Sequence record: OP555982.1
DNA from: Escherichia phage vB_EcoM-UFV11
Strand: one strand, 5' to 3'
DNA: 64,000 nucleotides
Shown here: one piece after another, positions 11 through 63,576 of the stretch
Numbering within the stretch: the first letter of the stretch is position 1
How the letters are laid out: each line of letters begins with the position of its first letter
Position numbers and translations under genes: made by a program
The notes under the pieces: generated by a model
The model's database searches: none
What the model was told of the DNA's origin: nothing
The model's input: the letters and a program-made list of their open reading frames with translations, nothing else

Positions 11-2188
11 TTAGGCCGCAAGGGCCTTCATAGTTTTAGCGATTTGGGAAACTTCATCATCACTTAAAGAGTTGCGATAACCGATGAAGTCGGAAACAAT
101 ACGGAATTTCTTGGTAAACTCAGCAACCATTTTATCACTATTTTTTGAAGCATTACGTGATAATTCATCAAAGAGATTAGTTACTGTCCAGATATCATGA
201 CCGATGGTATCTTTTCCACCGTTGAAGTATACACCCTGTAATGAACTAACCATATTAGCGAGTCGTGTATATTCTTCAGAAACTTCATCTACACTGAAGT
301 ACTTCATCATAAAATCTAATTCAGGATACTTGATAATTTTATCAATATATCGTTTAGCTGAACTTGAATAACCTACATACTTATCATAATCTACATCATC
401 AAAAGCATCTACATATAAATCACGCAAAGCTTCAAAAATACATTGGCACTGACCGAGTTCTTTTACCTTTTTCTGTAAAAGCGGACGAATAACATAAAAT
501 TCATTAATGCCAATAAGATTAGCCATACGAATCAAAATATTCATAGATGGATGACAAAGCGATGTAGTACCATCCATAGAGAAAATATCAGAACGATGCA
601 TATACGCTACATAACCAGTAATTTCATCTGCTTCTGATGTGAGCGTAAATAGTTCCTCTTTTTCCCAGCGCCCGTCTTTAATTTCAAACTTAAATGCTGT
701 AGCAGCTTTAGGACGAGGAGCTTTACTTTTAACTACCTTTGGAATATAGCTTTTAACTAAAGCTTCAATTTCTGACAAATAATGAATGTTAACTTCATCA
801 CTTTCAAACATTGCCATAATATCAGGTAGTAAATCAATCTGCGATTCTACTTCCGGATTAATAAACAGAAGGCGTTCGTTATGATGAATATTCAAAGTGT
901 TATTAAATTCACTATCATCTAACGCTCGTGCTAATCCACGAACAATATTAACACGATTTTTAATATTATCAATAACGATATTAATTTTTGTTGTATTAAT
1001 ACCAAACAGACGATAACTTGATGCAACGGCTGAAGTTTCATGACTTTGCTTAATGCGCTTCAGTCGAGGGTCAAGATTTACTTCATACACAACTCCTGCA
1101 TTGCATAACTTACTGTCAGGTTCAAACATGCTCTGCATCTTCTTATATGACAGATTTTTAGTCGTGAATTTGACTGAATTACTAATCATATAATCTCGAG
1201 CAGAATACCCCATCTTCATCAATTCACGGTATGTGTGACGAGGAGATGTAGATTCTTTAAATCGTTTTACATCTTCATTAAATGCTTTCTCACTAAGCTC
1301 TTTAACTCGTTCAATAATATTTTTACGAGTGCGATCATCTAATGAAAGAGCTTCGCGTGATGGAGCAATATCCAGTGAACCCATTGGAAATTTAATGTAA
1401 TTCACTTCATTGCGAATGCTTAACCAGTTACGGTCTCTAATAACACCATCGATAGGATAAACAATACCGCCATAGATAGCGTACAATCCACCACGATCAG
1501 GCCAGTATCTTTCTGGATTTACACCGTAATAGTCATCAAAATCCGGAAAATAATCAATTTCGCGGTCAAGACCATTAATGATAGCCAAATCTTTGAATGG
1601 TCGCATGATATAAGAAACTTCATAAGCAAAGTTTCTAAAGTCTTTTTCTTCAACTGGAACTACGATTTCAATACCAGTTTTATCATTTGGACCCATTTCT
1701 TTTACGAATGTAGGTTTAATTTGTGGACCATCGCCATCCATGTAAGCTACATAACCACGAATTTCACCTTTATGATATGAAGTAATACTAAATGTATCAG
1801 TATAACTAAACGGAGATTTAGAACCTAAACCAAATCCACCAATGAAATCATTAGATTCAGCCTTAGATGAACTAAAGTATGAATTATACAACCCAGGAGA
1901 ATTATCATCACCCTGAATATCAAAATCACTCATACCCGGACCAAAATCTCGACAAACAAATCGTGGATCTAAACGTCCAGGAACTTGAATGATAAATTTT
2001 TCAGGATTTCCATTGAGAGCATGGGCATCAATCATGTTAGTAATCAATTCACGGACTACTGCGCGAATCTTGTTTGTATACAAATCAGATGACAGAATTT
2101 TAAATACTTTAGGAGATGCTGTGATGCTAAATGCTTTTGATTTAGAACCATTACCAAGAATTGTTTCTTTTTCAGTGGTGATAATCAT
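11..2188 (-). CDS. rIIA: rIIA protein (725 aa)
   Basis: 725-aa ORF, ATG at 2186-2188; N-terminus [16 protein letters not shown] and length match T-even rIIA as recalled. Confidence 0.93.
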
Positions 2189-2198
2189 AATTTCCTCA

Positions 2199-2402
2199 TT
2201 AATTCATATTACGCTTAATAACTTCGGCAACTTCTAGTAGTTCATCTTTAGTTGCGGTGTCGGATTGAATTTTATCTCTAATATCCTTAAAGCGGTTTTT
2301 AAATTCTTCGGCTTCTCCCATATCGAAAAAGCGTTGAATGATTCTATATTCTCGATGAACTGCTTTATCAAAAAGTTCTAAATTTACTTTATATGATTTC
2401 AT
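2199..2402 (-). CDS. hypothetical small protein (rIIA.1 position)
   Basis: 67-aa ORF after early promoter, SD GAGGA upstream of ATG. Confidence 0.6.
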
Positions 2403-2427
2403 TTCAATATCCTCATTTGCCCAATTA

Positions 2428-2458
2428 ATTATACCACATCCTTGTGGTAAAGTAAACT
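2428..2458 (-). promoter_or_regulatory. T4-type early promoter (GTTTAC-N17-TATAAT)
   Basis: minus strand GTTTACTTTACCACAAGGATGTGGTATAAT upstream of 2402 start. Confidence 0.6.
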
Positions 2459-4274
2459 ACTGGCTCATCCATTCTTTACGAAGGTCAGCATTATCTCCCA
2501 TGAGCATTTCAAAAAGCTCTTTCCAATTCTCAGGAAGTTTAACAACATCATATACTGGGTTTTGAATCATCTCACGATATTCAGATTTTTCCAAAGAGCC
2601 AAGTCCTTTAATATAACGGATGCTATGTTTAGGTAGAGCATCTTTGGCACTCTCATATTCAGCGACTGTATAAAACCATTCTTGTTTTTTACCGACCTGA
2701 GCGATGATTACAGGAGTTTTGACAAAGCGAATTCGTCCTTGCTCAAACAATTCTGGCCAATTACTAAAAAATCCGAGCAGAGAAGGATAAATGCTTCCTA
2801 AACCATCATGGTCAGCATCGGTCATAATAGCAATATTATGATAATTCAAGTTTTCAGCTTTTTCACCAAGAACTAATCCAGTGATTGCGCAAATATCAAA
2901 CAGTTCTTTGTTTTTAAGCATATCAGCATATGACATACCCCAGCTATTAAGAACTTTACCACGCAATGGATAACCACCGTGAAGTTCTTTATCACGAACA
3001 TCAATAAGATATCCGATAGCAGAATCACCCTCAGTCAAGAAAAGAGTAGTGTCAGCATCTTTACCACAAAGATTCGCTTTGATATGTTTATGAACCTTAG
3101 CTTTAGAAGCCTTTTTAGCTGCTTTAGTTTCTGCTGCTTTTTCTGCCGCCAATTTACGAGCAAGGGCAGCTTCAATGATTGGCATTAAAATTGCTTCATT
3201 ATTTAGAATAGCGCGTGAAATCTTTTTAGCATCAAGTTGAATATGACTACGAATTTCGCCAAATGGAGAAGTCAAACGCTCTTTAGTTTGAGAATCAAAT
3301 CGCATGTTTTTCATATCACGGACAAACATAACGATAGTCAAACATTCTTTGACACGTGCTTTAGTCACATCAATTTTGAACTTACGTTTGATTTGTGGAA
3401 TAAGGTCTTCACAAATATCATCCATAACACAGTCAATGTGATGGCCACCATTCTTAGTGTGAATGTTATTCACATAAGTTAATTGACGAAATCCATCCGG
3501 TGAACGACCAACAGCAATAGAACAATTTTCTTGTTCTTGAACAATAGCATGTTCATCATACTGTCGTGCATATTTCTTAAAATTGCCCTGAACCTTTTTA
3601 CCATTAAAGGTAAATTGAATATCAGGATAAACAACAGCAAGTGTCTGGAGACGATCTAGTGTAATGTCAAGATAAACTTGGGACAGCTCATTAGTTTCAA
3701 ATGACATAAAATCTGGAATGAAAGTAACACGAGTTCCTTTCCATTTTCCAGGAATAGTTTCCCAGGATTTATTTTCCATGCCATTTGAACAACGAACTAC
3801 AATATTATTTTGACCATCGCCAGTTTCACCGACAAACATCACAGAAAAAATGTTAGTTAAACTAGAACCAACACCATTCATACCACCGGTGACGCGTTCT
3901 TTATCATCACCAAAGTTACCACCCGCTTTTGGAATAGTCCATGCAGCAACAGGACCAGGAATTTCTTCACCGGTAGGTGTTTTAACCATCGCTTGCGGAA
4001 TACCGCGACCGTTATCTTCAACTGTCACCTGATTATTTTTAATGGTAACATTAATTTTATTCGCGAATTTAAACTTAGTACGAATACCTTCATCGACTGA
4101 GTTATCGATAATTTCATCAATAAGCTTAACAAGACCAGGTACATACTGAACACTTTCCCATTTACCAAACAGAAAGCGCTCATGCATTTCATTAGCAGAA
4201 GAGCCAATGTACATGCCACTACGCTTTTTGATATGTTCAATATCGCTCAGAATTTTAATTTCATTCTTAATCAT
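2457..4274 (-). CDS. 39: DNA topoisomerase II large subunit, uninterrupted gene 39 form (605 aa)
   Basis: 606-codon ORF; first in-frame codon is GTG, ATG at 4272-4274 with SD GAGGA 6 nt upstream; N-term MIKNEIKILSDIEHIKKRSGMYIGS; GyrB-like motifs. Confidence 0.9.
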   Translation of the reverse strand: MIKNEIKILSDIEHIKKRSGMYIGSSANEMHERFLFGKWESVQYVPGLVKLIDEIIDNSVDEGIRTKFKFANKINVTIKNNQVTVEDNGRGIPQAMVKTPTGEEIPGPVAAWTIPKAGGNFGDDKERVTGGMNGVGSSLTNIFSVMFVGETGDGQNNIVVRCSNGMENKSWETIPGKWKGTRVTFIPDFMSFETNELSQVYLDITLDRLQTLAVVYPDIQFTFNGKKVQGNFKKYARQYDEHAIVQEQENCSIAVGRSPDGFRQLTYVNNIHTKNGGHHIDCVMDDICEDLIPQIKRKFKIDVTKARVKECLTIVMFVRDMKNMRFDSQTKERLTSPFGEIRSHIQLDAKKISRAILNNEAILMPIIEAALARKLAAEKAAETKAAKKASKAKVHKHIKANLCGKDADTTLFLTEGDSAIGYLIDVRDKELHGGYPLRGKVLNSWGMSYADMLKNKELFDICAITGLVLGEKAENLNYHNIAIMTDADHDGLGSIYPSLLGFFSNWPELFEQGRIRFVKTPVIIAQVGKKQEWFYTVAEYESAKDALPKHSIRYIKGLGSLEKSEYREMIQNPVYDVVKLPENWKELFEMLMGDNADLRKEWMSQ

Positions 4275-4326
4275 CACTTATCCTCGTTTGGTTTCGGGAA
4301 TATTATACTCCGGCAATCATAAAGCT

Positions 4327-4344
4327 AAAGGCCCGAAGGCCTTT
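4327..4344 (-). terminator. hairpin terminator AAAGGCC-UUCG-GGCCUUU
   Basis: perfect stem with UUCG tetraloop on minus strand just downstream of 4344 gene. Confidence 0.5.
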
Positions 4345-4613
4345 TATTTAAAACGAATAGTTGAATCCTTAAAGAACAGCCCAGAACATACTGTTCCTTC
4401 TACTTTCTGCCCGGTAGGTCCAATAGCACGAAATCCAGTATGCTGGAAATCATTTTCAGAGCAACCGAACCAATTGTATCCAGTGATTTCAATATTCGTA
4501 AAACCACTTGATGATAAAATTTTAGTTGCATTATCAGCATCAGTACATCCTACTAAAGATACTGCTAATACTAATGCTGCGATAGAACGATTAACATATT
4601 TCATAATTTTCAC
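4344..4613 (-). CDS. putative lipoprotein
   Basis: 89-aa ORF; signal peptide with lipobox LVGC. Confidence 0.6.
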   Translation of the reverse strand: MKIMKYVNRSIAALVLAVSLVGCTDADNATKILSSSGFTNIEITGYNWFGCSENDFQHTGFRAIGPTGQKVEGTVCSGLFFKDSTIRFK

Positions 4614-4984
4614 TTAAATTTAATGGCTTGAAGGAGACTAATAATTCTCAAACGGCTTCTTTCATCTTTAACTGTAAAAGAAAGAGGGTCGCCAGATTTC
4701 ATGGTAATAGTGCATTCAAAATCAAAATCTTCAGTGACTTCTTCGAAGAAGTCAAATTCTTCATCATAAATTAGAACACTACTTTGCAGACTGTGAAGAG
4801 TTTTTCCAGCATTTCTGCTAACTGCTGTACTAATCATTGTAACATTATGACCTTTCATATCTTCAACGATAAATTCACTAGTCAATATTACAGCATTAAT
4901 AGAACTATTCCTATTACTAACAGAAAGTAGAAATTTCTGTTCTTCACCTTCACGAATACGATATTTCTTACCAATTTTAAACAT
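4610..4984 (-). CDS. hypothetical protein
   Basis: 124-aa ORF, start overlaps stop of downstream gene. Confidence 0.55.
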   Translation of the reverse strand: MFKIGKKYRIREGEEQKFLLSVSNRNSSINAVILTSEFIVEDMKGHNVTMISTAVSRNAGKTLHSLQSSVLIYDEEFDFFEEVTEDFDFECTITMKSGDPLSFTVKDERSRLRIISLLQAIKFK

Positions 4985-4986
4985 AA

Positions 4987-5163
4987 TTACCCTTTAAGTA
5001 AATCGTAAAATCCACCATTCACATGCTTAGGAGCAGAAGGCCGACGAGTAGACAAACGATGACATTTAGGACAAACATCATTTTCTCGTTCAGAAATCTT
5101 TTTAATTTTTTCATATTCATGCCCGCAATCTTCGGATTGGCATTTATAATCATACATTGGCAT
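4987..5163 (-). CDS. small zinc-ribbon protein (FmdB-like CxxC...CPxC)
   Basis: 58-aa ORF MPMYDYKCQSEDCGHEYEK...CPKCH; ATG 3 nt after upstream stop. Confidence 0.45.
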   Translation of the reverse strand: MPMYDYKCQSEDCGHEYEKIKKISERENDVCPKCHRLSTRRPSAPKHVNGGFYDLLKG

Positions 5164-5165
5164 AA

Positions 5166-5591
5166 TTATTCCTTAAAATGGGCTTTCAGCATCTGATACA
5201 AAGACCACGCCTGTTCATTATTTTCAATAGTAACTTTCATGACCGGGAATTCTGTGAAATCTTCTATCTGTTCTTGCTCTTTCTCTTCCTGCTCTTGCTC
5301 TTCGGCTGCCTGGTATGGATTTTCCACTTCATCAAAGAACACAGCTTCGCTCGTTGAAAGCCAGATAAAATCTTCATCCAAAATATCTTTACCAGAAGAT
5401 AACGCCAATTTTCCACTAGATGTCACAAGTTTAGTAGGACGACCAAGATAGTCAATATCTGTAACTCTAAAAGGTTCCATACCAAGACGACGTGCATAAA
5501 TTCCGTTTTCAGTATGGTCCTTGATAAAATCTTCTTGAGCTTGTTTATTTTTAAATTGATACCATTTATTAACTTCAAATTTAATAGCCAT
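5166..5591 (-). CDS. hypothetical acidic protein
   Basis: 141-aa ORF with [12 protein letters not shown] acidic stretch. Confidence 0.55.
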
Positions 5592-5806
5592 TAATAAGTT
5601 TCCTTCCAGTAAGTTGTGCCATCTTCAGTAATTTCACGAAACACACCATAAATTGGTTGTTTATCACCAACTTTTTCGTACACATAAACCGAAGTCAAGT
5701 GAGTAAACTTAACGGTATGTTCCTTTTGAACCACTACCAAATCTGGATCAAATAATACATCTTCAAATTCGTCATTAGTGCAATTCTGAACAATTTTACG
5801 TTTCAT
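5591..5806 (-). CDS. hypothetical protein
   Basis: 71-aa ORF, translationally coupled. Confidence 0.5.
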
Positions 5807-5819
5807 TACAATTTCCTCA

Positions 5820-6089
5820 TTAATTGAACAGTGGAGCGATGCGTTTCAGAAGAGTAGCAGCACCTTTAGCGAATTTTACATCATGAAAAACAGTTTCTTC
5901 TTCCGTTACAACACGAGCTTTAATGTTTTCACAATCCCAATTTTTGCGAACAATCTTCAAAAGCTGCAGTAAATCTTTACATTCAACAATATCGATAACA
6001 CATCCACGAGAATCTTCCATTATCGCACGATAACCGTAAGCCATACCATAATCGTTGAAAGATTGCTCGATGATAATTAAGTTTTCCAT
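5820..6089 (-). CDS. hypothetical protein
   Basis: ORF track starts at TTG; ATG at 6089 preceded by conserved leader TTGGAGAATAAAATG. Confidence 0.5.
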   Translation of the reverse strand: MENLIIIEQSFNDYGMAYGYRAIMEDSRGCVIDIVECKDLLQLLKIVRKNWDCENIKARVVTEEETVFHDVKFAKGAATLLKRIAPLFN

Positions 6090-6186
6090 TTTATTCTCCA
6101 AGTTATTTTCTGTATCAGTAGTTGATATTGATATAGTACCATAATCAACTACTGATGTATATAGTTTTATGAAAAAATTTTAAACT

Positions 6187-15394: not shown

Positions 15395-15536
15395 ACTTAC
15401 AATTTAGCGGCTTTCCAGAGTTGTTCAATAATCTCTTGGTCTATTTCTTTAGTTATTTCATTACGTAATAAAGCAGTAAGGGCTTTCGCCCTTTTCTTAT
15501 TCAACTTTTTGAGTTGGCGTTTATTTAAACGGGACA

Positions 15537-16055: not shown

Positions 16056-16126
16056 TATTTTTCCTTTCAATTCATGGGTTAGTAGATTAATTATACAATA
16101 AATATATAAAGCAATAAGGAGGACAT

Positions 16127-21166: not shown

Positions 21167-22322
21167 TTAACTGATCTAGGTCAGTTTCTAAATCAGCTGC
21201 TGATTTACTTTTACTTTCTGGAGATTTAAATTTTTCAACCTTTGAGTTAATCAATTCATCAACTTCAGCTTCAACAATTTCATTACTATCAATAGCACCT
21301 AACTGATAAGCACGTTTAATAGCATCTCGGAACGGTTGATGCTTAAATAAAGGACCCCAGAATGTAGTGCAATTGGTATCTTTTGCACGCCAAGATTTTT
21401 CTTCGCGAATCATCTCGCCGGTTTCTTCGTCAAGAAATTCACGAGCATACCAGCCATTTTTAGGTTTTACCACAAATCCTAATTCTAAAGCCATATCTAA
21501 CAATCCAGAATAAGGATCGATGCCACCGTCAAATTTAACATCAATAAAGAATTTACTTTTTTCTTTGACGGTACGAGATTTTTCTACATTTAGAACAAAT
21601 TGATACCCCTGAAGATCAGAACCATCTTTAATCTGGCGCTTACCGATAATGAATACGGTATCAGCCGAATACATTACACCTGTACCACCTGTCATCACGG
21701 TTTTACTAAACATTTCAATTGTTTCAATTGTGTGGTTAACCGCAACACATGGAATATTTTTAATACTAAAATAAGGAGTAACAATACGGAATAATGACTT
21801 CAGTGATTTAGCACGAGTCATATCTGCCACAGATTTTTCATTCAAGGCATCTTCCGTTTCTTTCTTAGAAGCCATATTACCGATTGAGTCGATGAATACA
21901 ATAACTTTTTCACCACGCTCAATAGCTTCAAGCTGATTCACCATATCAATTTTCAGCTGTTCAACTGACTGAATTGGTGTATGAATTACTCGTTCCGGAT
22001 CAACTCCCATGGATCGCAAATAAGCTGGAGTAATACCAAATTCGCTATCATAGAATAGACACACCGCGTCAGGATATTTGTTCAAATACGCCGCAACCAT
22101 AGTCAAAGACATATTTGATTTAAAGTGTTTAGAAGGACCTGCAAAAATGGTTAAACCAGACTGCATACCACCATCAATCGCACCTGAAATAGCGATATTA
22201 AGCATTGGGATTTTTGTACGGATTACATCCTTTTCATTAAAGAATTTAGATGTAGTCAGTTCAGCAGTCATTTTAGAAGTGGAAGCTTTAATCAAACGGG
22301 ATTTTAAATCTGCAATAGACAT
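21141..22322 (-). CDS. uvsX: UvsX recombinase (RecA-like)
   Basis: 393-aa ORF; Walker A GPSKHFKS; matches recalled T4 UvsX. Confidence 0.95.
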   Translation of the reverse strand: MSIADLKSRLIKASTSKMTAELTTSKFFNEKDVIRTKIPMLNIAISGAIDGGMQSGLTIFAGPSKHFKSNMSLTMVAAYLNKYPDAVCLFYDSEFGITPAYLRSMGVDPERVIHTPIQSVEQLKIDMVNQLEAIERGEKVIVFIDSIGNMASKKETEDALNEKSVADMTRAKSLKSLFRIVTPYFSIKNIPCVAVNHTIETIEMFSKTVMTGGTGVMYSADTVFIIGKRQIKDGSDLQGYQFVLNVEKSRTVKEKSKFFIDVKFDGGIDPYSGLLDMALELGFVVKPKNGWYAREFLDEETGEMIREEKSWRAKDTNCTTFWGPLFKHQPFRDAIKRAYQLGAIDSNEIVEAEVDELINSKVEKFKSPESKSKSAADLETDLDQLSDMEEFNE

Positions 22323-22375
22323 TCATTTTTTCCATAGGCATCATTATATTTTCCTCACTGGTTAAAGATAAAGTA

Positions 22376-22402
22376 ATTATAACACAATAAATTTAGGCAT
22401 TA
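22376..22402 (-). promoter_or_regulatory. MotA-dependent middle promoter
   Basis: minus strand TAATGCCTAAA then 12 nt then TATAAT upstream of uvsX. Confidence 0.5.
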
Positions 22403-23248
22403 ATCAACTGCTATTGGATGAATAGCATTAAACTTATGAAACGCTTCTGATTTTTCTTTGCGCGAAACACACATGCGAAGAACCTTTAATGGCTCGTCTT
22501 CTTCACCCAACGATTTTCTCTTTTCAATATTAGAAGTTTTCCAACGAGCTTGCTCTGGAAACTCTCTATTGATTTGCTCAAGAGCTCTATTATGTTTTGA
22601 ATTACTACGAATTGAACTACATCCGCCTGGAGCTTGTGCTTTTCCAGATACAACCAGATATTTGAACAAGGCCAAATGCGGATAACCTTGATTAATTAAA
22701 TTGAGAAATGCATACATATCTTCGCATAAATCAATTTTTCCATACCCAATTTGTTCTGTTGTAAGTTTCCCGAGGTCATACCAAGTATTCGTGAATCCAT
22801 ATGAATTTTCACGATAATTACCCCAAGATGAAGTAATTTTAAAAATTGGTAAACGAGCATGGCCATGATAATACCCGCAATCCATGGCATCTTCAACGTA
22901 TTGAATCAATTCATAGAACTGTTCACGAGTTAACTGATTAATTTTATCTACGCAGCGACGGTCATCTTTCTTTCGCATTGAACTCATACGAATAGTAGTA
23001 TCATCGTCAATCATCCAAATTCGTTGACCTGCATACATATCAGTAATTGCTTTACGAGTACCAGCAATTCCGTTAACATCATCAGGAATAGTTATAATTT
23101 TAGCTCTAGACCCGTAAGCGTCATAATAAGCTTTTTCTTCGTGTTCACGTACTACAATATGTGGTTCATAATCAGTCGGAAACATATCAAGGGCAGAAAC
23201 TGCCCCTACGCGTTGATAGCTTGGAATTACGAATTGAATCATTTCCAC
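22400..23248 (-). CDS. putative GT-A fold glycosyltransferase (candidate hmC-DNA sugar transferase)
   Basis: 282-aa ORF; VIPSYQR and DXD (IWMIDDDTT) motifs; sits where T4 has beta-gt. Confidence 0.5.
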   Translation of the reverse strand: MEMIQFVIPSYQRVGAVSALDMFPTDYEPHIVVREHEEKAYYDAYGSRAKIITIPDDVNGIAGTRKAITDMYAGQRIWMIDDDTTIRMSSMRKKDDRRCVDKINQLTREQFYELIQYVEDAMDCGYYHGHARLPIFKITSSWGNYRENSYGFTNTWYDLGKLTTEQIGYGKIDLCEDMYAFLNLINQGYPHLALFKYLVVSGKAQAPGGCSSIRSNSKHNRALEQINREFPEQARWKTSNIEKRKSLGEEDEPLKVLRMCVSRKEKSEAFHKFNAIHPIAVD

Positions 23249-23979
23249 TCACCGTTATAATCTTTTTTCGCAATATGAGTTTCGCCAGTTTTCCACCAAT
23301 GGTCAACCAAATAAAAATGACGGGAATACACATGAAGGCTCCCGACATTCCATATAATGGAACCTGCTTTATACTGACGGGTTGAATCACCTGCATTCAA
23401 ATCAGATACTAATTTATCTAGTACGTATTTTTGCCATGCATAATCATTACGGAATCCGAAGACCACGTCATTTGAACGCATGCTTACTACTGCATTGACT
23501 TTCTTATCACGAATCAGGTACTGTACTGTATTCGTACACATGAAATCTGACATACCATCTTTATTGTAGTCAAACTGCATGGATGGACGAGTATAAATCA
23601 TGATACCACGCCGAGAATCAGGATTTTGACCAAGTTCAGCTAAACACATATCATACTGAGCATAGTTATCTTCTGACCAAATAGCCCAACCATAATTCGA
23701 GTTAATTTCGCCTTTAGAAGATGCTACCTGTTGCCAAATCTTCGGTGTTTCACCTGGAATATCTTTAACAAACAGGCTTTGAGACTTATACCATTCAAGT
23801 TCACGCTGAATGTATTCATCATTAAGAGCGCCAAAAATAAAAGGTTCATCTGCTACAAATGATGCACCAATAATTTCAATAGTTTTAACACCAGTTTTAT
23901 CAATTACGAAATCTTTTTCCTTTAATGCAAGACCCAAATCAAGACGGATTTCTTCAACTGTCATATAATCGTTAATCAT
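23239..23979 (-). CDS. 42: dCMP hydroxymethylase gp42 (246 aa)
   Basis: 246-aa ORF matching recalled T4 gp42. Confidence 0.95.
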   Translation of the reverse strand: MINDYMTVEEIRLDLGLALKEKDFVIDKTGVKTIEIIGASFVADEPFIFGALNDEYIQRELEWYKSQSLFVKDIPGETPKIWQQVASSKGEINSNYGWAIWSEDNYAQYDMCLAELGQNPDSRRGIMIYTRPSMQFDYNKDGMSDFMCTNTVQYLIRDKKVNAVVSMRSNDVVFGFRNDYAWQKYVLDKLVSDLNAGDSTRQYKAGSIIWNVGSLHVYSRHFYLVDHWWKTGETHIAKKDYNGEWK

Positions 23980-24782: not shown

Positions 24783-25019
24783 TCAAATACAAGTAGTAAT
24801 TACTCCAGTAGTGCTTACACAGGTATTACCTAATTGAACACCCAACGTTCCATTAGTATTCATATGAAGATTATCATCAATTTTTGTTGATACTTTACCA
24901 TTCATGTGAATAATAGTATTAGATTCAATCACATTCTGAGTGTCATTTTCAATATCAATAAATGGAACAGTTGCTAATGCAACTAAACACACTGCTAAAC
25001 AACCATAAACAATTTTCAT
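24783..25019 (-). CDS. hypothetical secreted/membrane protein
   Basis: ATG at 25019 after conserved leader GGAGAATAAAATG; N-terminal hydrophobic segment. Confidence 0.5.
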   Translation of the reverse strand: MKIVYGCLAVCLVALATVPFIDIENDTQNVIESNTIIHMNGKVSTKIDDNLHMNTNGTLGVQLGNTCVSTTGVITTCI

Positions 25020-25053
25020 TTTATTCTCCAAATCCGTATCAGTTGATAGTTGT

Positions 25054-25083
25054 ATAGTACCATGGAAGAACGGGGATGTAAAT
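25054..25083 (-). promoter_or_regulatory. T4-type early promoter with conserved leader
   Basis: minus strand ATTTACATCCCCGTTCTTCCATGGTACTAT; 42-bp leader identical to 52671-52712. Confidence 0.5.
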
Positions 25084-25170
25084 AGTTTTGTGAAAAAATT
25101 TTTAATGAATTTACAGGACCTAGAATCATCTATTTTTCCTAAGTATAGATTTATATTACTTGTATGAAAA

Positions 25171-31312: not shown

Positions 31313-31504
31313 TTAGTCATAATAATCAGTAACAGTCCAAGCTTCATTTCTATTGGACATTATTTTTGTATATTCTGCTTTAAATGCATTCCTAAGCATA
31401 GATTCAGTAACTATATGCTCTTCATTAGAAAAATTATTTCTCAGAATATATCGTTTTATTTCAGGAATAGTTAATAGATGCTGTCCAGTTGAATATTCTG
31501 CCAC
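31313..31504 (-). CDS. hypothetical protein
   Basis: 63-aa ORF. Confidence 0.5.
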   Translation of the reverse strand: MAEYSTGQHLLTIPEIKRYILRNNFSNEEHIVTESMLRNAFKAEYTKIMSNRNEAWTVTDYYD

Positions 31505-31514
31505 AGTTCCTCCG

Positions 31515-31522
31515 TATAAATA
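31515..31522 (+). promoter_or_regulatory. T4 late promoter TATAAATA (plus strand)
   Basis: exact TATAAATA ~34 nt upstream of HNH gene ATG. Confidence 0.5.
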
Positions 31523-31555
31523 TGTTTATCACTCGCTGTATCAAAAGGATATGTT

Positions 31556-32272
31556 ATGAATTATAAACTAATTTATGAAAAGTTAATCTCTAATGCTAAA
31601 TCTCGAAAACTTGATTGCTATACTGAATCTCATCACATTATACCGCGCTGTTTAAATGGAAGTGATGATGCTTCAAACTTAGTAGATTTAACACCAGAAG
31701 AGCACTATGTAGCTCATCAACTTTTAGTAAAAATTTATCCTTCTGAACCAAAATTAGTCTATGCTGCTAACATGATGACAGTTTCTACGAAATACGCTAA
31801 ACGCAACAATAAAACTTTCGGTTGGATTCGTCGTAAACTCTGGGAAATAGAAAAGAACAAAGAATTCTCCCAGGAGACACGAAAGAAAATGTCTGATGCA
31901 GTAGCTAATAAAGCAAGATTAACTTGTCCTCATTGCGGTAAGTCTGGATTAAGCGGAAATATGAATCGTTGGCATTTTGATAACTGCCCAAATCACCCTA
32001 ATCCTAAAATTAGACCACCAATGTCTAAAGAACACAGAAATAATATCTCAAACGGGCTTAAAGCAATCGTTCTTGAAGAAACATCCTGCGAATTCTGCGG
32101 AATGATAGGCAAGAAATGCGTTATCGCAGCGCATAGAAATTTCTGCAAGAAAAATCCAAATGGACGCAAGAAAACTGAAAAGACTGGTACTTGCGTCCAT
32201 TGTGGTAAAGTTACCACTTTCGGAAATTTATCAAGATGGCATAATGATAACTGTAAATATAAACTTAGCTAA
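31556..32272 (+). CDS. HNH homing endonuclease with three C-terminal Cys-His zinc-finger repeats
   Basis: 238-aa plus-strand ORF; HNH motif ESHHIIPRCLNGSDDASNLVDLTPEEHYVAH; three CxxCGK...RWHxDNC repeats. Confidence 0.8.
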   Translation: MNYKLIYEKLISNAKSRKLDCYTESHHIIPRCLNGSDDASNLVDLTPEEHYVAHQLLVKIYPSEPKLVYAANMMTVSTKYAKRNNKTFGWIRRKLWEIEKNKEFSQETRKKMSDAVANKARLTCPHCGKSGLSGNMNRWHFDNCPNHPNPKIRPPMSKEHRNNISNGLKAIVLEETSCEFCGMIGKKCVIAAHRNFCKKNPNGRKKTEKTGTCVHCGKVTTFGNLSRWHNDNCKYKLS

Positions 32273-33953
32273 TCTTAGCTAAACTAAATCTACCAACTTT
32301 TTCCATCTGAATATGCTGACCATATTCTTGTGGGTCATGGTCTTTATGTGAAATTATGAAGAAGTTGGTATCCTTCAAACCATCTAAAATTTTAGCTACA
32401 TTTTTAATACCTTCAGCATCAAATGCACCGTCATACACTTCATCAAGAAATAAACAACTTATTTTAACACCTGAAACTTTTTCAGCAATATCACGCCAAG
32501 TAAATAAAAGAGCAATATCAATTCGCGCTTTTTCACCTTGACTGAATGAAGCATAACTAAAATCTTCACGACCACGGGATTTAATTGTCTCATTAAATTC
32601 TTCATCTAATGTAAACACATAATCCGCTTCCATTATTTTAAGATAATGGTTAATCTGCTTATTAAATAATGGAATGTACTTTTTAATAATAGCACCTTTA
32701 ATACCAGAATCTTTGAGCATATCAGTCAAAATTCCTCGGTGGTATTTTTCCATTACTAAATTAGTTTTTGTCTTAACAATTTTATCAAGTTCTTCTTGAA
32801 GCAGTGCTATTTCATCAGCATGGTCAATAAACTCAGAAGATGCTTTTTCTATAGCCGCTTTAACCTTTTTAGCTTTATCTACTGCTGCGATCAGAGATTG
32901 CTTTTTATTGCGAATATCATTTGCCAACGACTGCTGGGTTTTAATATTATCTCGGTATTCATCAACAAGAACTTTTAAATTATCACGATGTGTTGAAAGA
33001 TGTTCAAACGAATGCGTGCATTCAGAAACTTTATCTTTAATTTTAGAAACAACTTTATCACCGGAACTTAATTGTGACAAACAGGTTGGACATAATCCAC
33101 CTTCGTGATACATATTAATGACTTTATTATACGAGTCAATTTTTGATTTAATTAAAACTGCTTCTTGACCGATTTTATTAAATGCATCAGTCGGGTCTTC
33201 ATCTAAAACAATATTAACTAATCTTTCATTAGCTTCTTCTATTTCCGATTTTAGCGTTCTAGCTTCTTTTGCCAAATCATCATACATATTTTGAAGACGA
33301 GTAAGGTTGTCACCCGTTAATTTTTTCTGGCGTTCAACGTTATCATTATATATTTTAATTTGTTGGATAATACTATCTTTTTTAACATCAAGCACTTGGT
33401 TTTGTGAATTTAATTCACGTATTAGTGCTTTATTAAGCTTATCCATTTCAGCTAATGTTCCTACCTCGAGCAGGTCTTCCACAAGCTTTCTTCGCGCAGG
33501 GGTCGACAAACCCATGAAAGGGGTATACCCTGCTGTACCAAGGACAACAATCTGCTTGAAACTGGCATATGACATTCCGATAAGCTGTTCAAATTCTGCT
33601 TGGAAATCTTTACTGCTGGCAGATTCATTAAGACGTGTACCGTTAACGGTGATTTCGAAAACGTTTGGTTTTTGTCCTCTTTTGATATAATACTTTTTCT
33701 CATCATATTCCATCCACAGTTCAACTAAAAGTTCTTTCTTATTTGTGCTGTTTATTAATTGACCTTTCTTTACATCACGAAATGGCTTGCCAAAAAGCCC
33801 AAATGTGATGGCTTCTAACATAGTAGACTTACCACCGCCATTTCGTCCAGTAATAAGAGTTTTTTGAACCTTATCTAATTGAATGTCAATAGGATTTCCA
33901 CCTACTGACATTATATTTTGATACCTAACTCGGTTTAGTTTAAAATTCTTCAC
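32265..33953 (-). CDS. 46: recombination endonuclease subunit gp46 (Rad50/SbcC-like)
   Basis: 562-aa ORF; Walker A GRNGGGKST, coiled coil with CPTC hook, signature SQGEKA. Confidence 0.93.
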   Translation of the reverse strand: MKNFKLNRVRYQNIMSVGGNPIDIQLDKVQKTLITGRNGGGKSTMLEAITFGLFGKPFRDVKKGQLINSTNKKELLVELWMEYDEKKYYIKRGQKPNVFEITVNGTRLNESASSKDFQAEFEQLIGMSYASFKQIVVLGTAGYTPFMGLSTPARRKLVEDLLEVGTLAEMDKLNKALIRELNSQNQVLDVKKDSIIQQIKIYNDNVERQKKLTGDNLTRLQNMYDDLAKEARTLKSEIEEANERLVNIVLDEDPTDAFNKIGQEAVLIKSKIDSYNKVINMYHEGGLCPTCLSQLSSGDKVVSKIKDKVSECTHSFEHLSTHRDNLKVLVDEYRDNIKTQQSLANDIRNKKQSLIAAVDKAKKVKAAIEKASSEFIDHADEIALLQEELDKIVKTKTNLVMEKYHRGILTDMLKDSGIKGAIIKKYIPLFNKQINHYLKIMEADYVFTLDEEFNETIKSRGREDFSYASFSQGEKARIDIALLFTWRDIAEKVSGVKISCLFLDEVYDGAFDAEGIKNVAKILDGLKDTNFFIISHKDHDPQEYGQHIQMEKVGRFSLAKIS

Positions 33954-35594: not shown

Positions 35595-36795
35595 ATTTTG
35601 TAATAATGTCAAACTGCTCTTTAAAGCAGAAGCTTGAATCTTGGTGCTGATACAAAAATTCATAAGCTTTTTCGCGTTCACGGTCATAAAGAGTTCGGTC
35701 AGATGACAGTTCTTTAATACGTTCAAATGTTGATTCCATGTCATTTTCATCAAACCAAATGATACCGCTATCATGCGAGGTCAAAGGAGTATTATCAACA
35801 CGGAATTTTAAATTTTCGCCTGTAGATTTCCAAAATACCGGAATTGTTCCACATGCACCAAGCTCGAGATGAGTATATTCTAAAGAACGTTGTAGATATT
35901 TTTTGTCCAACTTACTCAGCTGATAACCAAATCCGGATTTACTCATGCGTTCAAGCATTTCGCTATTTACATAACGGTCAAGAATTTGCGTTGGCAAATT
36001 AGGAGCAATTTTAATTTGGTCTACTTGATGAAGACGATAATACTCGTATGGAATTCCTTTTTCTTTAATAGGAATGAACGCTGGAGAACGTTCCAGACCT
36101 TCCATAATAGTACTTAGTCCTGCAGGTTTAAGATGTTTTTCATGAAAATCAAACATCTGATAAAAACCTTTCCACGTAGTAGTACGACCAATCCAACGAT
36201 TGATATTCATGTTAATTTCAGAAACATCTTTCCAGTAGGTTGATCGAACCTTTGCAATATCCATCGGAGGCTGAAAGTTATATACTGTCGGTGCTTCTTC
36301 AATATCATCAAACAGAGAAACTGTTTCAGGATACCATTCTTTCATCAGAACTTTATTAAAATCGCCATTATCAGAATGGCTAAAAATAACATCAGCTCGA
36401 CGAACAGTTTCTTCTAATCCCAAATTTCGACGCAAAGAAAGAGAAGAATGGTCATGTTGATAAACTACAACACGAACAGAAGGTTTAATGTTATCAATAA
36501 TTTTTTTATAGTTATTAATAGTGTCTTCTTCAACTGAAGTAGCAGGAACTGAATTGATAATTAGAATATCACAATCATTTACCAGCTTAAGTGTTTTATC
36601 GTATTCTTTTGCCAATAAAACCGGAATTGAAAATGATTTATAATCATGCGCGCAATTACGAGTAAATGATTTATCTTTAGCATAAACCAAAGTTACTTCA
36701 TGACCATTTTTAATAAACCAATCACGTTGCTCAAGAGAAAATTTAGTTACACCACAACCTTCAAGACCTCGAGCCATAAAAATACATACTTTCAT
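35593..36795 (-). CDS. a-gt: DNA alpha-glucosyltransferase (400 aa)
   Basis: 400-aa ORF matching recalled T4 alpha-gt. Confidence 0.88.
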   Translation of the reverse strand: MKVCIFMARGLEGCGVTKFSLEQRDWFIKNGHEVTLVYAKDKSFTRNCAHDYKSFSIPVLLAKEYDKTLKLVNDCDILIINSVPATSVEEDTINNYKKIIDNIKPSVRVVVYQHDHSSLSLRRNLGLEETVRRADVIFSHSDNGDFNKVLMKEWYPETVSLFDDIEEAPTVYNFQPPMDIAKVRSTYWKDVSEINMNINRWIGRTTTWKGFYQMFDFHEKHLKPAGLSTIMEGLERSPAFIPIKEKGIPYEYYRLHQVDQIKIAPNLPTQILDRYVNSEMLERMSKSGFGYQLSKLDKKYLQRSLEYTHLELGACGTIPVFWKSTGENLKFRVDNTPLTSHDSGIIWFDENDMESTFERIKELSSDRTLYDREREKAYEFLYQHQDSSFCFKEQFDIITK

Positions 36796-36845
36796 TTAAT
36801 ATCCTCTTTGTTTTGGTTTATTTTACCAAAAATTTATAAAGCAAT

Positions 36846-41129: not shown

Positions 41130-41600
41130 TTAATCATGTTTCCACACCCCATCGGTATTTGACCAAAGTCGCTGATTATCTGATCCTCGCCACAGCTTTT
41201 TAGTCGGAAGATTTTTCTCATACTTCCCATCAATAATAACATCAACATATTTAAGCATTTCTAGTTGTTTAATATCTTCAAACTTATATCCTGTCCACAA
41301 CCAAATGCTTTTATTAGGATAAAGATTTTTAATAGTTTGAACCACAGAGTGAATCACGTCTCTGTTATCAGGATAGAGAGGGTCACCTCCAGTTATAGTT
41401 AATCCTTCTATATAATCATTATTCAAACATTCAATTAATTGTTCTAGTGTTTCACCAGTGAATGGAACGCCATTTCTAGCATTCCATGTTGATTTATTAT
41501 AACACCCTTCACATTTATGCAAACAACCTGTAACGAAAAGAACGACCCTGCATCCAGGGCCATTCACAAAATCACAGGGATAAAATCTATCGTAATTCAT
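41130..41600 (-). CDS. nrdG: anaerobic ribonucleotide reductase activase NrdG (radical SAM)
   Basis: 156-aa ORF; CxxxCxxC cluster GCLHKCEGC. Confidence 0.9.
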   Translation of the reverse strand: MNYDRFYPCDFVNGPGCRVVLFVTGCLHKCEGCYNKSTWNARNGVPFTGETLEQLIECLNNDYIEGLTITGGDPLYPDNRDVIHSVVQTIKNLYPNKSIWLWTGYKFEDIKQLEMLKYVDVIIDGKYEKNLPTKKLWRGSDNQRLWSNTDGVWKHD

Positions 41601-43414
41601 TGGTGTTTAACCCTATGCATGATTTCTTTATTTTTGCCGAGATTAAATCCGCGTTCGTTCGGATTTCCCAAATAACCACATGTTCTTCTTATTGTGTTCA
41701 TCTTTTTAGGATCAGTTTCTCCACAAATAGAACAAACAAATCCGTTTTCAGTAGGAGTCATTTCATGGGTACTTCCACATGTAAAACATTTATCTACTGG
41801 CATATTAACACCAAAATAATCTAAATGTTGTGCAGCATAATCCCATACGGCCTCAAGACCCTTTAAGTTATTTTTCATATCAGGAAGTTCAACATAAGAA
41901 ATGTGGCCGCCTGTCGCAATGAAATGATATGGTGCTTCGCGAGAAATCTTTTCAAACGGAGTAATATTTTCTTCTACTGAAACATGGAAACTGTTAGTGT
42001 ACCAACCTTTATCGGTAACATCCTTTACACTTCCATATTTTTCGGTATCAAGTTTACAGAAGCGATAACAAAGGTTTTCAGCAGGAGTAGAATACAAACT
42101 AAAAGCAAACCCAGTTCTTTCAGTCCACTGTTTAAGACGAGCATTCATTTTAGTTAAAATTTCCTGTCCAATATCACGACCGACAAGAATATTCAATTCG
42201 TGAATACCAATGTATCCTAGAGACACTGAACTTCTGCCATTTTTAAATAACTCAATTATATCGTCATCAGGTTTAAGACGAACCCCGAATGCACCTTCTT
42301 GATAAAGAATAGGAGCAACAGTCGCTTTAACTCCTTTTAAGGAACTAATTCTACACATCAAAGCTTCAAAACATAAATCCATTCGTTCATTGAATAATTC
42401 AACAAATTTCTGTTCATTGAACTGTGTTCCAATATAAGAATCTAATGCGATACGAGGAAGATTCAGTGTTACAACACCGAGATTATTACGTCCATCAAGA
42501 ATTTCATTGCCAGTCGAATCTTTCCATACGCTCAAGAAACTACGACAACCCATTGGAGAAACAGGAATAGATGAGCCGGTGATAGCTTTATTGTTCTTAG
42601 CCGAAATAATATCAGGATACATTCTTTTGCTTGCGCACTCTAGAGCAAGCTGTTTAATATCATAGTTCGGATCGTCTTTATAAAGATTAACACCTTCTTC
42701 AACGAACATAACAAGCTTAGGGAAAATAGGAGTTATCCCATCACGACCAAGACCTTTAATACGATTTTTCAGAATTGCTTTCTGAATCATTCGTTCAGTC
42801 CAGTCAGTTCCTGTACCAAATGTAATTGTTACAAAAGGTGTTTGTCCGTTTGAGCTAAAGAGAGTATTTACTTCATATTCATAAGCTTGGAATGCATCGT
42901 ATACATCTTTTTCTGTTTTAGATTGAGCATAATTCAACGCATCAGCGATTTGCCATTTTTCTGCATCCTCAATATGTTTTGCATAGGTGCGTTTAACATA
43001 AGGAGAAAGTACTTTATCTACATTAGCAAAAGTCGTTCCGCCGTATTGATGGGAAGCAACCTGTGCAGTAATTTGTGCCATAATTGCAGTAGCAACACCG
43101 ATTGATTTAGGAGTTTCAATCTGTGCATTACCAAGCTTAAATCCGTTCTCAAGCATTCCTTTTAAATCTACTAAACAACAATTAGTAAATGGAAGAGCAG
43201 GGGAATAATCAATATCGTGGAAATGAATAATTCCGCTTTCATGCGCTTTCATAATAAAAGACGGGACCATATTTTTGGCAATGTGTTTAGACACAATACC
43301 AGCCATAAGGTCCCGTTGAGTTGGAAAAACACGAGAATCTTTATTAGCATTCTCGTTTAAAAGGTCTTTATTAGTTTTATGAATCAATCCTTCAATTTCT
43401 TTTTCAATTGTCAT
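41597..43414 (-). CDS. nrdD: anaerobic ribonucleotide reductase NrdD (605 aa), uninterrupted
   Basis: single 605-aa ORF; C-terminal zinc ribbon and glycyl-radical region RRTCGYLG. Confidence 0.95.
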   Translation of the reverse strand: MTIEKEIEGLIHKTNKDLLNENANKDSRVFPTQRDLMAGIVSKHIAKNMVPSFIMKAHESGIIHFHDIDYSPALPFTNCCLVDLKGMLENGFKLGNAQIETPKSIGVATAIMAQITAQVASHQYGGTTFANVDKVLSPYVKRTYAKHIEDAEKWQIADALNYAQSKTEKDVYDAFQAYEYEVNTLFSSNGQTPFVTITFGTGTDWTERMIQKAILKNRIKGLGRDGITPIFPKLVMFVEEGVNLYKDDPNYDIKQLALECASKRMYPDIISAKNNKAITGSSIPVSPMGCRSFLSVWKDSTGNEILDGRNNLGVVTLNLPRIALDSYIGTQFNEQKFVELFNERMDLCFEALMCRISSLKGVKATVAPILYQEGAFGVRLKPDDDIIELFKNGRSSVSLGYIGIHELNILVGRDIGQEILTKMNARLKQWTERTGFAFSLYSTPAENLCYRFCKLDTEKYGSVKDVTDKGWYTNSFHVSVEENITPFEKISREAPYHFIATGGHISYVELPDMKNNLKGLEAVWDYAAQHLDYFGVNMPVDKCFTCGSTHEMTPTENGFVCSICGETDPKKMNTIRRTCGYLGNPNERGFNLGKNKEIMHRVKHQ

Positions 43415-51700: not shown

Positions 51701-52669
51701 TTATTTCAGAAGAGTAACCTCAGCGATTTCTTCCCAACCGTTTTTGTCGGTCATAATAAAGTCAGCAAGATAAAGAGCAGTACGCAGTGAAACATTGCGT
51801 AAACGATTAACATTGACTTTCATCCATGATAATGCTTTATAAGTTTCTTCATCAGAAAGACCGCGCTTTTGCATCATGTCAGTTGAAAGAATAACATCTT
51901 CAACCCTGACCATAATTTCTTCATTAGTGTGAACACCCAAATCCAAATAAACTGAGCGGGACACTAATGCTTGTAAATGTGGAGCAAGTTTAGTACCACG
52001 GTCTAATTCGCGGTCAATGTCAACGTTTGTGATAAAAACAATCGTTCCTTTAAATTCAAACTCACGCTCAATGCCTTTTTCTTCTAAGTAAGAAGATGCA
52101 GTGCTCCAGCAGACTTTACGGGTCTCTCCAGTGTCCAGAGCAGCTTTCAGAAGATTAAGAATGTCCATATCAGAGAAAACATCCACATCATCAATCAAAA
52201 GGACAGAATTCTCTTCACGATTATTCCAAAGCTGCTCATAAAGACCAATACCAGAGATTTTACCATTAATGCTTTTATATTCAATGTATCCAATATCATT
52301 TGCTTTATTTAAAGCTTTATCTAAAGAATACGTTTTACCAATACCCGCCGCACCAGAGATAATTAATGAACGAATGTTTCCGTTAATAATACCATTCGTC
52401 ATCATTCCCATAACATTAAATCTTTTATTAATGCGGGTTTTCATATCTTCATATGATTCTTTAACTTCTTCAACTTTTACACCATCATATGAAATGTCTG
52501 ATTTGTAAACCCAAACACCGCGACGTTTACCGTCAATTTCAACAAAAACTTTACCATCTCCTTGTGCATCTACTGGGGCATTATCAGGGAACCACTCACC
52601 TAAGAGTTCAAAAGTTCCAGAGATTTCTTTGCCAAAGTAGATACCCTTATTGATAGTTACAGTTTTCAT
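51701..52669 (-). CDS. P-loop NTPase (AAA-like)
   Basis: ATG at 52669 after leader GGAGAATAAAATG; Walker A GAAGIGKT, Walker B VLLIDDVD. Confidence 0.6.
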   Translation of the reverse strand: MKTVTINKGIYFGKEISGTFELLGEWFPDNAPVDAQGDGKVFVEIDGKRRGVWVYKSDISYDGVKVEEVKESYEDMKTRINKRFNVMGMMTNGIINGNIRSLIISGAAGIGKTYSLDKALNKANDIGYIEYKSINGKISGIGLYEQLWNNREENSVLLIDDVDVFSDMDILNLLKAALDTGETRKVCWSTASSYLEEKGIEREFEFKGTIVFITNVDIDRELDRGTKLAPHLQALVSRSVYLDLGVHTNEEIMVRVEDVILSTDMMQKRGLSDEETYKALSWMKVNVNRLRNVSLRTALYLADFIMTDKNGWEEIAEVTLLK

Positions 52670-52703
52670 TTTATTCTCCAAATCCGTATCAGTTGATAGT
52701 TGT

Positions 52704-52733
52704 ATAGTACCATAAAGCTTTATGCTTGTAAAC
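52704..52733 (-). promoter_or_regulatory. T4-type early promoter with conserved leader
   Basis: minus strand GTTTACAAGCATAAAGCTTTATGGTACTAT. Confidence 0.55.
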
Positions 52734-52764
52734 TGTTTTGTGAAAAAATTTTTGAAATAAAAAA

Positions 52765-53798: not shown

Positions 53799-54256
53799 TC
53801 AGCCTTATATTCAATAACAGGACATACTTTAGCTTTACGGGCTTTTAAAAATTCGACGATAATAGATTTCTTGGGTTGAATAGGAGGTAAACCTTTATAC
53901 GCCCTATCAATATTTTCTACATGTAAAGCATAATCCTTTTTCCATTTATAATCTTTATATTTTTCATGCAGTTGTGCAGGAATAACAAATGAACCAATAA
54001 TAAGTAAAACAAGCAAAATGGCAAGTATAAATGCCGATGGAATAAGAGTCCATAAACTACCAAAAATAAGCCATTTCTGTATGATTTCTGCGCAGATAAT
54101 AGTTAGACCTGCGAGTATAGTACATCCGAAAAAAGAAACGAAAAATGTAGGGATAACAATAGACCAAAAGTATGCACACAGTGTCTTAGGTCGTTTCCAT
54201 TCGTCGTTAAACAGTTTGAATAATTTATAGTGCCAAGAGTTTTCATTAATAATCAT
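53795..54256 (-). CDS. hypothetical multi-pass membrane protein
   Basis: 153-aa ORF with ~3 TM segments; stop overlaps nucleotidyltransferase ATG (ATGA). Confidence 0.55.
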   Translation of the reverse strand: MIINENSWHYKLFKLFNDEWKRPKTLCAYFWSIVIPTFFVSFFGCTILAGLTIICAEIIQKWLIFGSLWTLIPSAFILAILLVLLIIGSFVIPAQLHEKYKDYKWKKDYALHVENIDRAYKGLPPIQPKKSIIVEFLKARKAKVCPVIEYKAE

Positions 54257-54258
54257 AA

Positions 54259-54780
54259 TTATCCTTTCATTGAAGGTGTAACAGTTGTTAAATACTTAAT
54301 CATAGCTTCAGCTTCTGATTTTGATAATGAAATTTCTCCATTGTTTTGACGAATAGAAATAAAATCCGGATGACGGTCACCACCAGCTTTTAAAACACAC
54401 ATATAAGTATCAGTTTCATCTTCAATATCTGAAATGATTGAAGCAGTTCCGCATGAATGTGGTTTTTGATAAATCAATACAGCTTTTCTTCCACCATTTG
54501 ACTGTTCATAGGCTTTTAATACATCAAACAAATCAGTTCTTTTATCAATAGCTAAAATGTTATTTTCATCTTCAATGTTAAATCCTTCGGATACTTCATA
54601 AAGTGTTACCCATAAATCACCGATGTCAATAACAGCATTTCCTTTTCCACGACTTTCAAGAATATGACAAATTTTCTTTATTTCGTCATAACTCATTTTA
54701 ATAATATCATCTCCTTGAATAAGGAAGATGTCATTTTTAAATTTAACGCGAATTAAACCGCTTTCACTAGAAATAAACAT
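54259..54780 (-). CDS. hypothetical protein, paralog of 54787-55344
   Basis: 173-aa ORF; C-terminal SIRQ...EAEAMIKYLTTVTPSM matches neighbour. Confidence 0.5.
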   Translation of the reverse strand: MFISSESGLIRVKFKNDIFLIQGDDIIKMSYDEIKKICHILESRGKGNAVIDIGDLWVTLYEVSEGFNIEDENNILAIDKRTDLFDVLKAYEQSNGGRKAVLIYQKPHSCGTASIISDIEDETDTYMCVLKAGGDRHPDFISIRQNNGEISLSKSEAEAMIKYLTTVTPSMKG

Positions 54781-62615: not shown

Positions 62616-62768
62616 TTTATTCTCTCTAAATTTGGGCCATTCCATGGCGCATGAATTGTCCATTTCTGTATTTACCCATTACCGCACTTGGGCTCGACCT
62701 TATTACAGGTTGGCGGGAATCCCTCACAGAATCATGAGGTCCAGCTTGTTCCCATATTTCTTATTTGC

Positions 62769-63242
62769 TTATTTGAATGATTTAACGTACTGAATAGAAC
62801 CTTTACTATTCACAAAGGCAATTTTACCATTTTTGTTATACATAGTAGCAGTACGTTGATAGCCATAAGTTTGTTTACCAGATTGATAACCAACTAATGC
62901 GAAATTATCTTCACCCATTTTATTCTGTTTAGCGCGAATGCGTTCATGACCATGTGCCATAAGAACCTTAGCATCACCAGTTGCAATGGACCGACGAGTT
63001 TTTTCATCTTCAACTGTATTAACAAAGTCGTCAAATGAATCAAATTTAGCATGAGATTTATTATACAGTTTTCCATCTACTGCATAATTATATCCTTGTA
63101 CATCCATCTCAACTTCTGTACCATCATCTAATACCGCAGTAATTTTCTGTCCTTTTTTAAATTTCAAAAGATCAGTAAAAGATTCAGCAATAATTTGAGA
63201 ATTAATAGCTGCTTCAGTAATAAATTCTTTATACGTTTTCAT
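62769..63242 (-). CDS. capsid internal protein (IPIII-like)
   Basis: 157-aa ORF; N-terminal MKTYKEFITEA as in T4 internal-protein targeting sequences. Confidence 0.65.
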   Translation of the reverse strand: MKTYKEFITEAAINSQIIAESFTDLLKFKKGQKITAVLDDGTEVEMDVQGYNYAVDGKLYNKSHAKFDSFDDFVNTVEDEKTRRSIATGDAKVLMAHGHERIRAKQNKMGEDNFALVGYQSGKQTYGYQRTATMYNKNGKIAFVNSKGSIQYVKSFK

Positions 63243-63258
63243 GTGTATCCTTTAATTT

Positions 63259-63576
63259 TTATTCTTTAGGGAAGTTTTTAGAATATGCATCATAAAGCTT
63301 ATTTCCAATACGGCGGAAAACTCTAGCCGCAAAACGATTTTCTGGGTTTTTAATCATGATTTGCATCATATAAGTACCCGCGTCAGAAAGAGCTTCTTCA
63401 TAGTACCCGTTAATTTCTTTAAGAGTCCTACGTTTACCACCAGGACCATCAACAGTGATTTTCCATTTACCTGTAGAAGTGCGACTTGGCGGTTCAACTT
63501 GTTCAATCCAGATATAACCGCCTTCTACACGCTGTCCTGCAACAGATTCTGCAATAAATTCTTTATACGTTTTCAT
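63259..63576 (-). CDS. capsid internal protein (IPII-like)
   Basis: 105-aa ORF; N-terminal MKTYKEFIAES; 5' DNA near-identical to neighbour. Confidence 0.65.
   Translation of the reverse strand: MKTYKEFIAESVAGQRVEGGYIWIEQVEPPSRTSTGKWKITVDGPGGKRRTLKEINGYYEEALSDAGTYMMQIMIKNPENRFAARVFRRIGNKLYDAYSKNFPKE

Follow-up and report, generated by a model that had tools for sequence, protein, structure and literature searches.

In phage T4 the C-terminal part of the topoisomerase II large subunit is encoded not by gene 39 but by a separate gene 60, with a 50-nt translational bypass, and this description, on which an earlier sequence-only reading of the present locus had relied, agrees with both the annotation of the T4 record and the literature. 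The question raised by the corresponding locus of Escherichia phage vB_EcoM-UFV11 (OP555982.1), of which a stretch of 64,000 nt was analysed (hereafter the window), is whether its gene 39 is divided in the same manner or intact and, if intact, for what reason. The comparisons presented below indicate that the frame is almost certainly gene 39 of a T4-like phage (Tequatrovirus) in the unsplit, 'parental' form, which is continuous for want of the MobA homing-endonuclease element.

A single uninterrupted gene 39 of 605 codons had been claimed for this locus, and both the six-frame ORF list and the raw sequence bear out the claim together with its coordinates (Table 1); the strand, which the sequence-only reading did not name, is the minus strand. 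The gene spans 1818 nt, comprising 605 sense codons and a TAG stop, and extends from an ATG at 4274 to the stop at 2459..2457. The entry in the ORF list is 606 aa long because an in-frame GTG at 4277 directly precedes this ATG, which is the start used by gp39 of T2, T6 and T4. The short GAGGA motif upstream of the ATG would plausibly act as the Shine-Dalgarno-like ribosome-binding signal of the gene. At the 34.5% G+C of the window, the chance of 605 stop-free codons in a random frame is approximately 2e-20, and the frame is therefore rejected as a chance ORF. Gene 39 is neighboured by rIIA (11..2188), rIIA.1 (2199..2402) and 39.1 (4344..4613), and the same three genes flank the topoisomerase gene of T4 in the same arrangement.

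Table 1. Gene 39 of the window, the domains of its product and the landmarks of the empty MobA-element site
Feature	Window position	Strand	Basis
Gene 39, topoisomerase II large (GyrB-like) subunit	2457..4274	minus	ORF, T6/T2 alignment, UFV09 annotation
Shine-Dalgarno-like GAGGA (putative)	4281..4285	minus	6 nt upstream of gene 39 ATG; read from sequence
GHKL ATPase domain (HATPase_c), residues 47-149	3828..4136	minus	Pfam PF02518, E 1.9e-9
GyrB transducer (DNA_gyraseB), residues 250-384	3123..3527	minus	Pfam PF00204, E 1.5e-13
TOPRIM core, residues ~409-518	2721..3050	minus	E415, D486/D488; single-stretch alignment to ParE, GyrB, eukaryotic Topo II
TOPRIM C-terminal associated domain, residues 519-604	2463..2720	minus	Pfam PF16898 (TOPRIM_C), E 4.1e-7
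Empty MobA-element site, codons 474-494 (ENLNYHNIAIMTDADHDGLGS)	2793..2855	minus	blastn break points and junction sequences
T4 bypass-equivalent point, codon 491 GGT then codon 492 TTA	2799..2804	minus	junction comparison

The HATPase_c, DNA_gyraseB and TOPRIM_C matches in gp39 of the window all exceed the curated Pfam cut-offs, with PF02518 scoring 38.4 bits (cut-off 26.4) and PF00204 scoring 51.1 bits (cut-off 27) on their respective domains. The GHKL ATPase motif residues Asn58 and Asp87 are found, and the TOPRIM residues Glu415, Asp486 and Asp488, whose metal-binding roles are taken from the structural study of the T6 topoisomerase (PMC11461880), are intact, with Asp490 also in place. The TOPRIM domain and its E...DxD metal-binding motif are continuous within one polypeptide. 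With these GHKL, transducer and TOPRIM features, the predicted protein qualifies as the ATPase/TOPRIM subunit of a type IIA topoisomerase. A phmmer search of the PDB aligned human TOP2A/B, pneumococcal ParE and GyrB to gp39 in a single stretch across the point at which the T4 protein is split and, since homologues this distant align without a break, continuity is the general state of the family. The order GHKL-transducer-TOPRIM is likewise shared with GyrB/ParE and with the N-terminal half of eukaryotic Topo II, and the alignment is continuous over residues ~6-603, although the sequences are distant (E 1e-36 to 1e-60) and the phage protein, at 605 aa, is shorter than the approximately 800 aa of GyrB.

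The closest characterized relative is gp39 of T6, with structures available as PDB entries 8YLU, 8YO1 and 8YOD and with ATP-dependent relaxation shown for gp39 together with gp52 (PMC11461880). In the phmmer search, the T6 protein (8YLU_C, with five other entries) aligned over the whole of residues 1-605 with Q526H as the only substitution; 604 of 605 residues are identical, and the window carries Gln526 where T6 has His. The alignment with T2 and T6 that the sequence-only reading had proposed as a check was run in full; both proteins have 605 aa, and T2 gp39 differs at two positions (603 of 605 residues identical), where Phe70 and Thr173 of the window are replaced by Leu and Asp, respectively (F70L, T173D). 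The DNA identity of the gene is 96.9% to T6 and 96.4% to T2. The T2 (AP018813) and T6 (AP018814) records each carry a 605-codon gene at the corresponding place, between rIIA.1 and 39.1, with the same domain order, and point substitutions are the only differences. Four further Escherichia phages of Tequatrovirus, vB_EcoM-UFV05/06/09/10, are 100% identical over window 2100-4700 (megablast) and again over 31450-32330, with no differences in the compared stretches; window coordinates are shifted by 1 relative to MZ291552.2. The records of these phages annotate the gene 39 ORF as 'DNA topoisomerase large subunit'.

Comparison with the split genes of T4 locates the difference precisely. Residues 1-473 of the window protein are collinear with T4 gp39 1-473 at 98% identity, with eight scattered substitutions, and residues 474-605 follow on T4 gp60 29-160 at 96% identity, with five substitutions all confined to 474-481. 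The C-terminal 132 residues, which the sequence-only reading took to be the counterpart of gp60, are thus related to it along their length. The five substitutions on the gp60 side all lie within the short part of the gene of which the T4 insert carries a re-encoded copy. An artificial fusion of T4 gp39 and gp60 (8YO3_C) aligns as residues 1-473 and 472-605, flanking an insert found only in T4. At the DNA level (blastn), two blocks of homology are seen, one pairing window 4606..2857 with T4 5661..3911 (95.8% identity) and the other pairing window 2805..2101 with T4 2806..2102 (98.6%). The intervening DNA measures 51 nt in the window and 1104 nt in T4 (break points 2857/2805 vs 3911/2806). According to the T4 record, these 1104 nt cover the gene 39 3' end, mobA and 60.1, together with the gene 60 5' end and a 50-nt 'non-coding translational bypass region'. 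Without counterpart in the window are the two protein extensions of T4 (43 residues at the C-terminus of gp39 and 28 residues unique to the N-terminus of gp60), mobA/60.1, the copy of the deleted stretch carried by the insert, the hairpin with the take-off GGA-UAG and the 50-nt gap.

Certain features of the T4 reference record itself are also apparent from this comparison. In the mobA region, the interval 2807-3910 of NC_000866 is 11 bases longer than its equivalent in T4T and most other T4-type records (1104 vs 1093 nt), and mobA is annotated there as a defective fragment together with 60.1, whereas the re-sequenced T4T record has an intact mobA of 272 codons. Residues 326-328 of gp39 read LIR in the T4 reference and FDS in the window, T2 and T6.

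The junction sequences show where the two arrangements part. On the left, the window reads GGT GAA AAA GCT and continues with GAA AAC TTG AAT, where T4 switches to TTT GAA GAA AAA. On the right, T4 reads GAT GGA [TAGCCTTCGGGCTATC...TTATTGGA] TTA GGT TCT and the window GAT GGT TTA GGA AGC. The window protein consequently passes through the junction as GEKA|ENLNYHNI without interruption, carrying the parental ENLNYHNI in place of the insert-encoded SSMNYANV of T4, and no counterpart of the extensions FEEKEDGEWF... (gp39 end) or MKFVKIDSSS... (gp60 start) was found in gene 39 of the window. In T4, approximately 1.1 kb takes the place of a stretch of approximately 51-63 nt of the window; this insert comprises the gp39 C-terminal extension, mobA, a gp60 N-terminal extension that includes the re-encoded copy ('HomR') of the deleted stretch, the 50-nt gap and an additional 9 nt.

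The MobA element has been described as 1097-1106 nt long, entering at residues 466-473, ending at or just after the landing codon, with an additional 9 nt in 'clade 1', and deleting 55-75 nt of the parental gene, which it re-encodes in diverged form (Manning and Atkins, bioRxiv 10.1101/2022.08.31.505936). The break points found here agree with that description, and the T4 junctions resemble the form with the additional 9 nt; when these are included, the segment lost by T4 is codons 474-494, the empty site listed in Table 1. At the bypass-equivalent point, codon 491 is GGT where the T4 take-off codon is GGA, and the window has no UAG, no hairpin and no second (landing) GGA. The sequence-only reading had further held that the bypass element and any homing endonuclease insertion are absent from the locus, and both statements stand: the T4 take-off hairpin and coding gap gave 0 matches anywhere in the 64-kb window with up to 3 mismatches allowed, and the 51 nt of the window face 1104 nt in T4, with tblastn of the intact T4T MobA giving no match inside or beside gene 39. 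The 81 nt around the site differ from T2 at two synonymous positions: codon 485 is ACC in the window and ACT in T2, and codon 492 is TTA and CTA, respectively.

A MobA gene displaced to another part of the window was considered and rejected, as the sole tblastn match belongs to a different Mob-like HNH ORF (31556-32272, plus strand, 238 aa). This ORF lies on the strand opposite to its neighbours, as an insertion into the interval from gene 45.2 to gene 46, which in T4 measures only 72 nt. At its N-terminus it shares 38-57% identity with MobA, MobB, MobC and MobD of T4, and Pfam gives a weak HNH match; the match to T4T MobA amounts to 38% identity over the N-terminal 109 residues (tblastn). UFV09, RB33 and other records annotate it as a homing endonuclease, and of 454 phage records with a match only 59 contain the complete ORF.

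The synteny of the window with T4 positions 1-72,000, its order read by hand from blastn matches, displays a number of other differences. None of the T4 homing endonuclease genes mobA, segF, segA, mobB, mobC and mobD, nor the nrdD intron with I-TevII, occurs in the 64-kb window; the sites other than that of mobA lie at 15395-15536, 22311-23256, 36787-36810, ~41590, ~42877 and 53800-54761, and nrdD is a single ORF of 605 codons (41597..43414). Gene 56, beside the empty segF site, has 76% DNA identity to T4, compared to 90-98% for most other long matched blocks. T4 dam (the gene for DNA adenine methyltransferase; approximately 900 nt including flanks) is cleanly missing at 16096-16115, between gene 56 and the region upstream of gene 61, and tblastn with T4 Dam was empty across the 64 kb. 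Where T4 has segA and beta-gt (beta-glucosyltransferase), an ORF of 280 aa on the minus strand (22400-23242) gives a match to the Pfam family TAGT (TET-associated glycosyltransferase, E 1.2e-9). T4 beta-gt has no tblastn match in the 64-kb window, and alpha-gt is retained with 91% identity to T4 (35596..36795); together these observations suggest a set of hydroxymethylcytosine sugar modifications different from that of T4. At 62758-63543, 786 nt stand in place of the 1440 nt of T4 with denV, ipII and ipIII and contain two ORFs, one for a DUF7412 protein of 157 aa and one of 105 aa, both beginning MKTYKEFI; no denV homologue was found in the 64-kb window by tblastn. Closer to gene 39, the 39.1 ORF measures 89 aa from a GTG start in the ORF list, 86 aa in the UFV09 and T4T annotations and 65 aa in the T4 reference, and an extra minus-strand ORF of 124 aa without a Pfam match (4610-4984) separates 39.1 from 39.2; T4 has no ORF at this place, and T2 and T6 have one of 318 nt and one of 372 nt, respectively. 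A dispersed repeat of approximately 100 nt occurs at 6082-6184, 25009-25105 and 52663-52757, and each copy matches several T4 positions (~6550, 27007, 55310, 70616) at 76-86%, making it a repeated intergenic sequence common to the window and T4.

The best account of the locus is one of absence: gene 39 is continuous because the phage is without the MobA element. In T4 and a minority of its relatives, this element sits in the TOPRIM-coding region, splitting the gene into 39 and 60 and bringing with it the 50-nt coding gap that ribosomes bypass. In the window, the target region, codons 474-494, is kept intact by the absence of the element, and the GHKL ATPase, the transducer and a complete TOPRIM are encoded on one polypeptide; with a one-piece gene, the subunit should not have to be assembled from two fragments after translation, and ribosomes should have no gap to bypass. 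By analogy with T2 and T6, gp39 and gp52 would form an A2B2 type IIA topoisomerase, with gp39 of the window presumably the working GyrB-like subunit of that pair. Gene 52 presumably lies beyond the 64-kb window, its place on the T4 map being near the other genome end.

The continuous gene could instead be secondary, an ancestor having lost the MobA cassette or genes 39 and 60 having fused. Both 'gene fusion' and 'gene separation' are left open by the T6 topoisomerase study (PMC11461880), clades that lost the endonuclease and the bypass after insertion have been described (Manning and Atkins, bioRxiv 10.1101/2022.08.31.505936), and loss by recombination with an uninvaded allele would be expected to leave no trace. 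The locus nonetheless carries no scars: neither the C-terminal extension of gp39 nor the N-terminal one of gp60 has left any residue, the parental octapeptide occupies the place of the insert-encoded one, and the junction DNA departs from T2 only at the two silent positions described above. Continuity at the split point in the cellular and eukaryotic homologues also speaks against a secondary origin, as does the distribution among phages. The gene region is uninterrupted, i.e. at least 80% in one piece, in 505 of 652 matching phage records, and the 1.1-kb cassette of T4 occurs in only 43, so that among related phages the uninterrupted form outnumbers the split form by approximately 12 to 1. 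A secondary origin is accordingly judged improbable. Apart from T4 itself, phages of the T4 group have been reported to encode the subunit in one ORF (PMC3014915); an undivided gene 39 is the usual condition and has been described before, with T4 as the exception.

With the target region of gene 39 intact, the expected behaviour in mixed infection with a MobA-positive phage would be that of a recipient, not a donor. Passages of the preprint of Manning and Atkins that cite Bonocora 2011 describe 'parental' Topo2L genes and MobA homing into T2 (bioRxiv 10.1101/2022.08.31.505936), and gene 39 of the window would probably be nicked and invaded by MobA in the same way, a susceptibility predicted from the intact target region and its near-identity to that of T2. 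The allele might alternatively be naturally resistant to MobA through its own synonymous changes, with no bypass insert needed, as the two differences from T2 lie near the target. However, according to the same passages, nicking is blocked only by the 50-nt insert and not by the many substitutions of the insert-encoded copy; since that heavier divergence failed to block nicking, two silent changes are unlikely to protect, and resistance of this kind appears very improbable. If true, a MobA-refractory allele would represent a second route to immunity without the bypass insert. Finally, the notion that the long ORF is no functional gene, but a decayed copy or an assembly artefact, is effectively refuted and of negligible probability in view of the chance estimate for its openness, its single difference from a T6 protein of determined structure and relaxation activity, the integrity of all catalytic residues checked and the identical sequence in four independently deposited phage genomes.

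The finding has little significance beyond correct annotation, in that the locus should be annotated as a single, complete topoisomerase II large-subunit gene that involves no recoding. The split gene and ribosomal bypass of T4 are defined by comparison with the unsplit gene 39 as the reference, and this phage can serve as a 'parental', MobA-free comparator or as a recipient in studies of homing.
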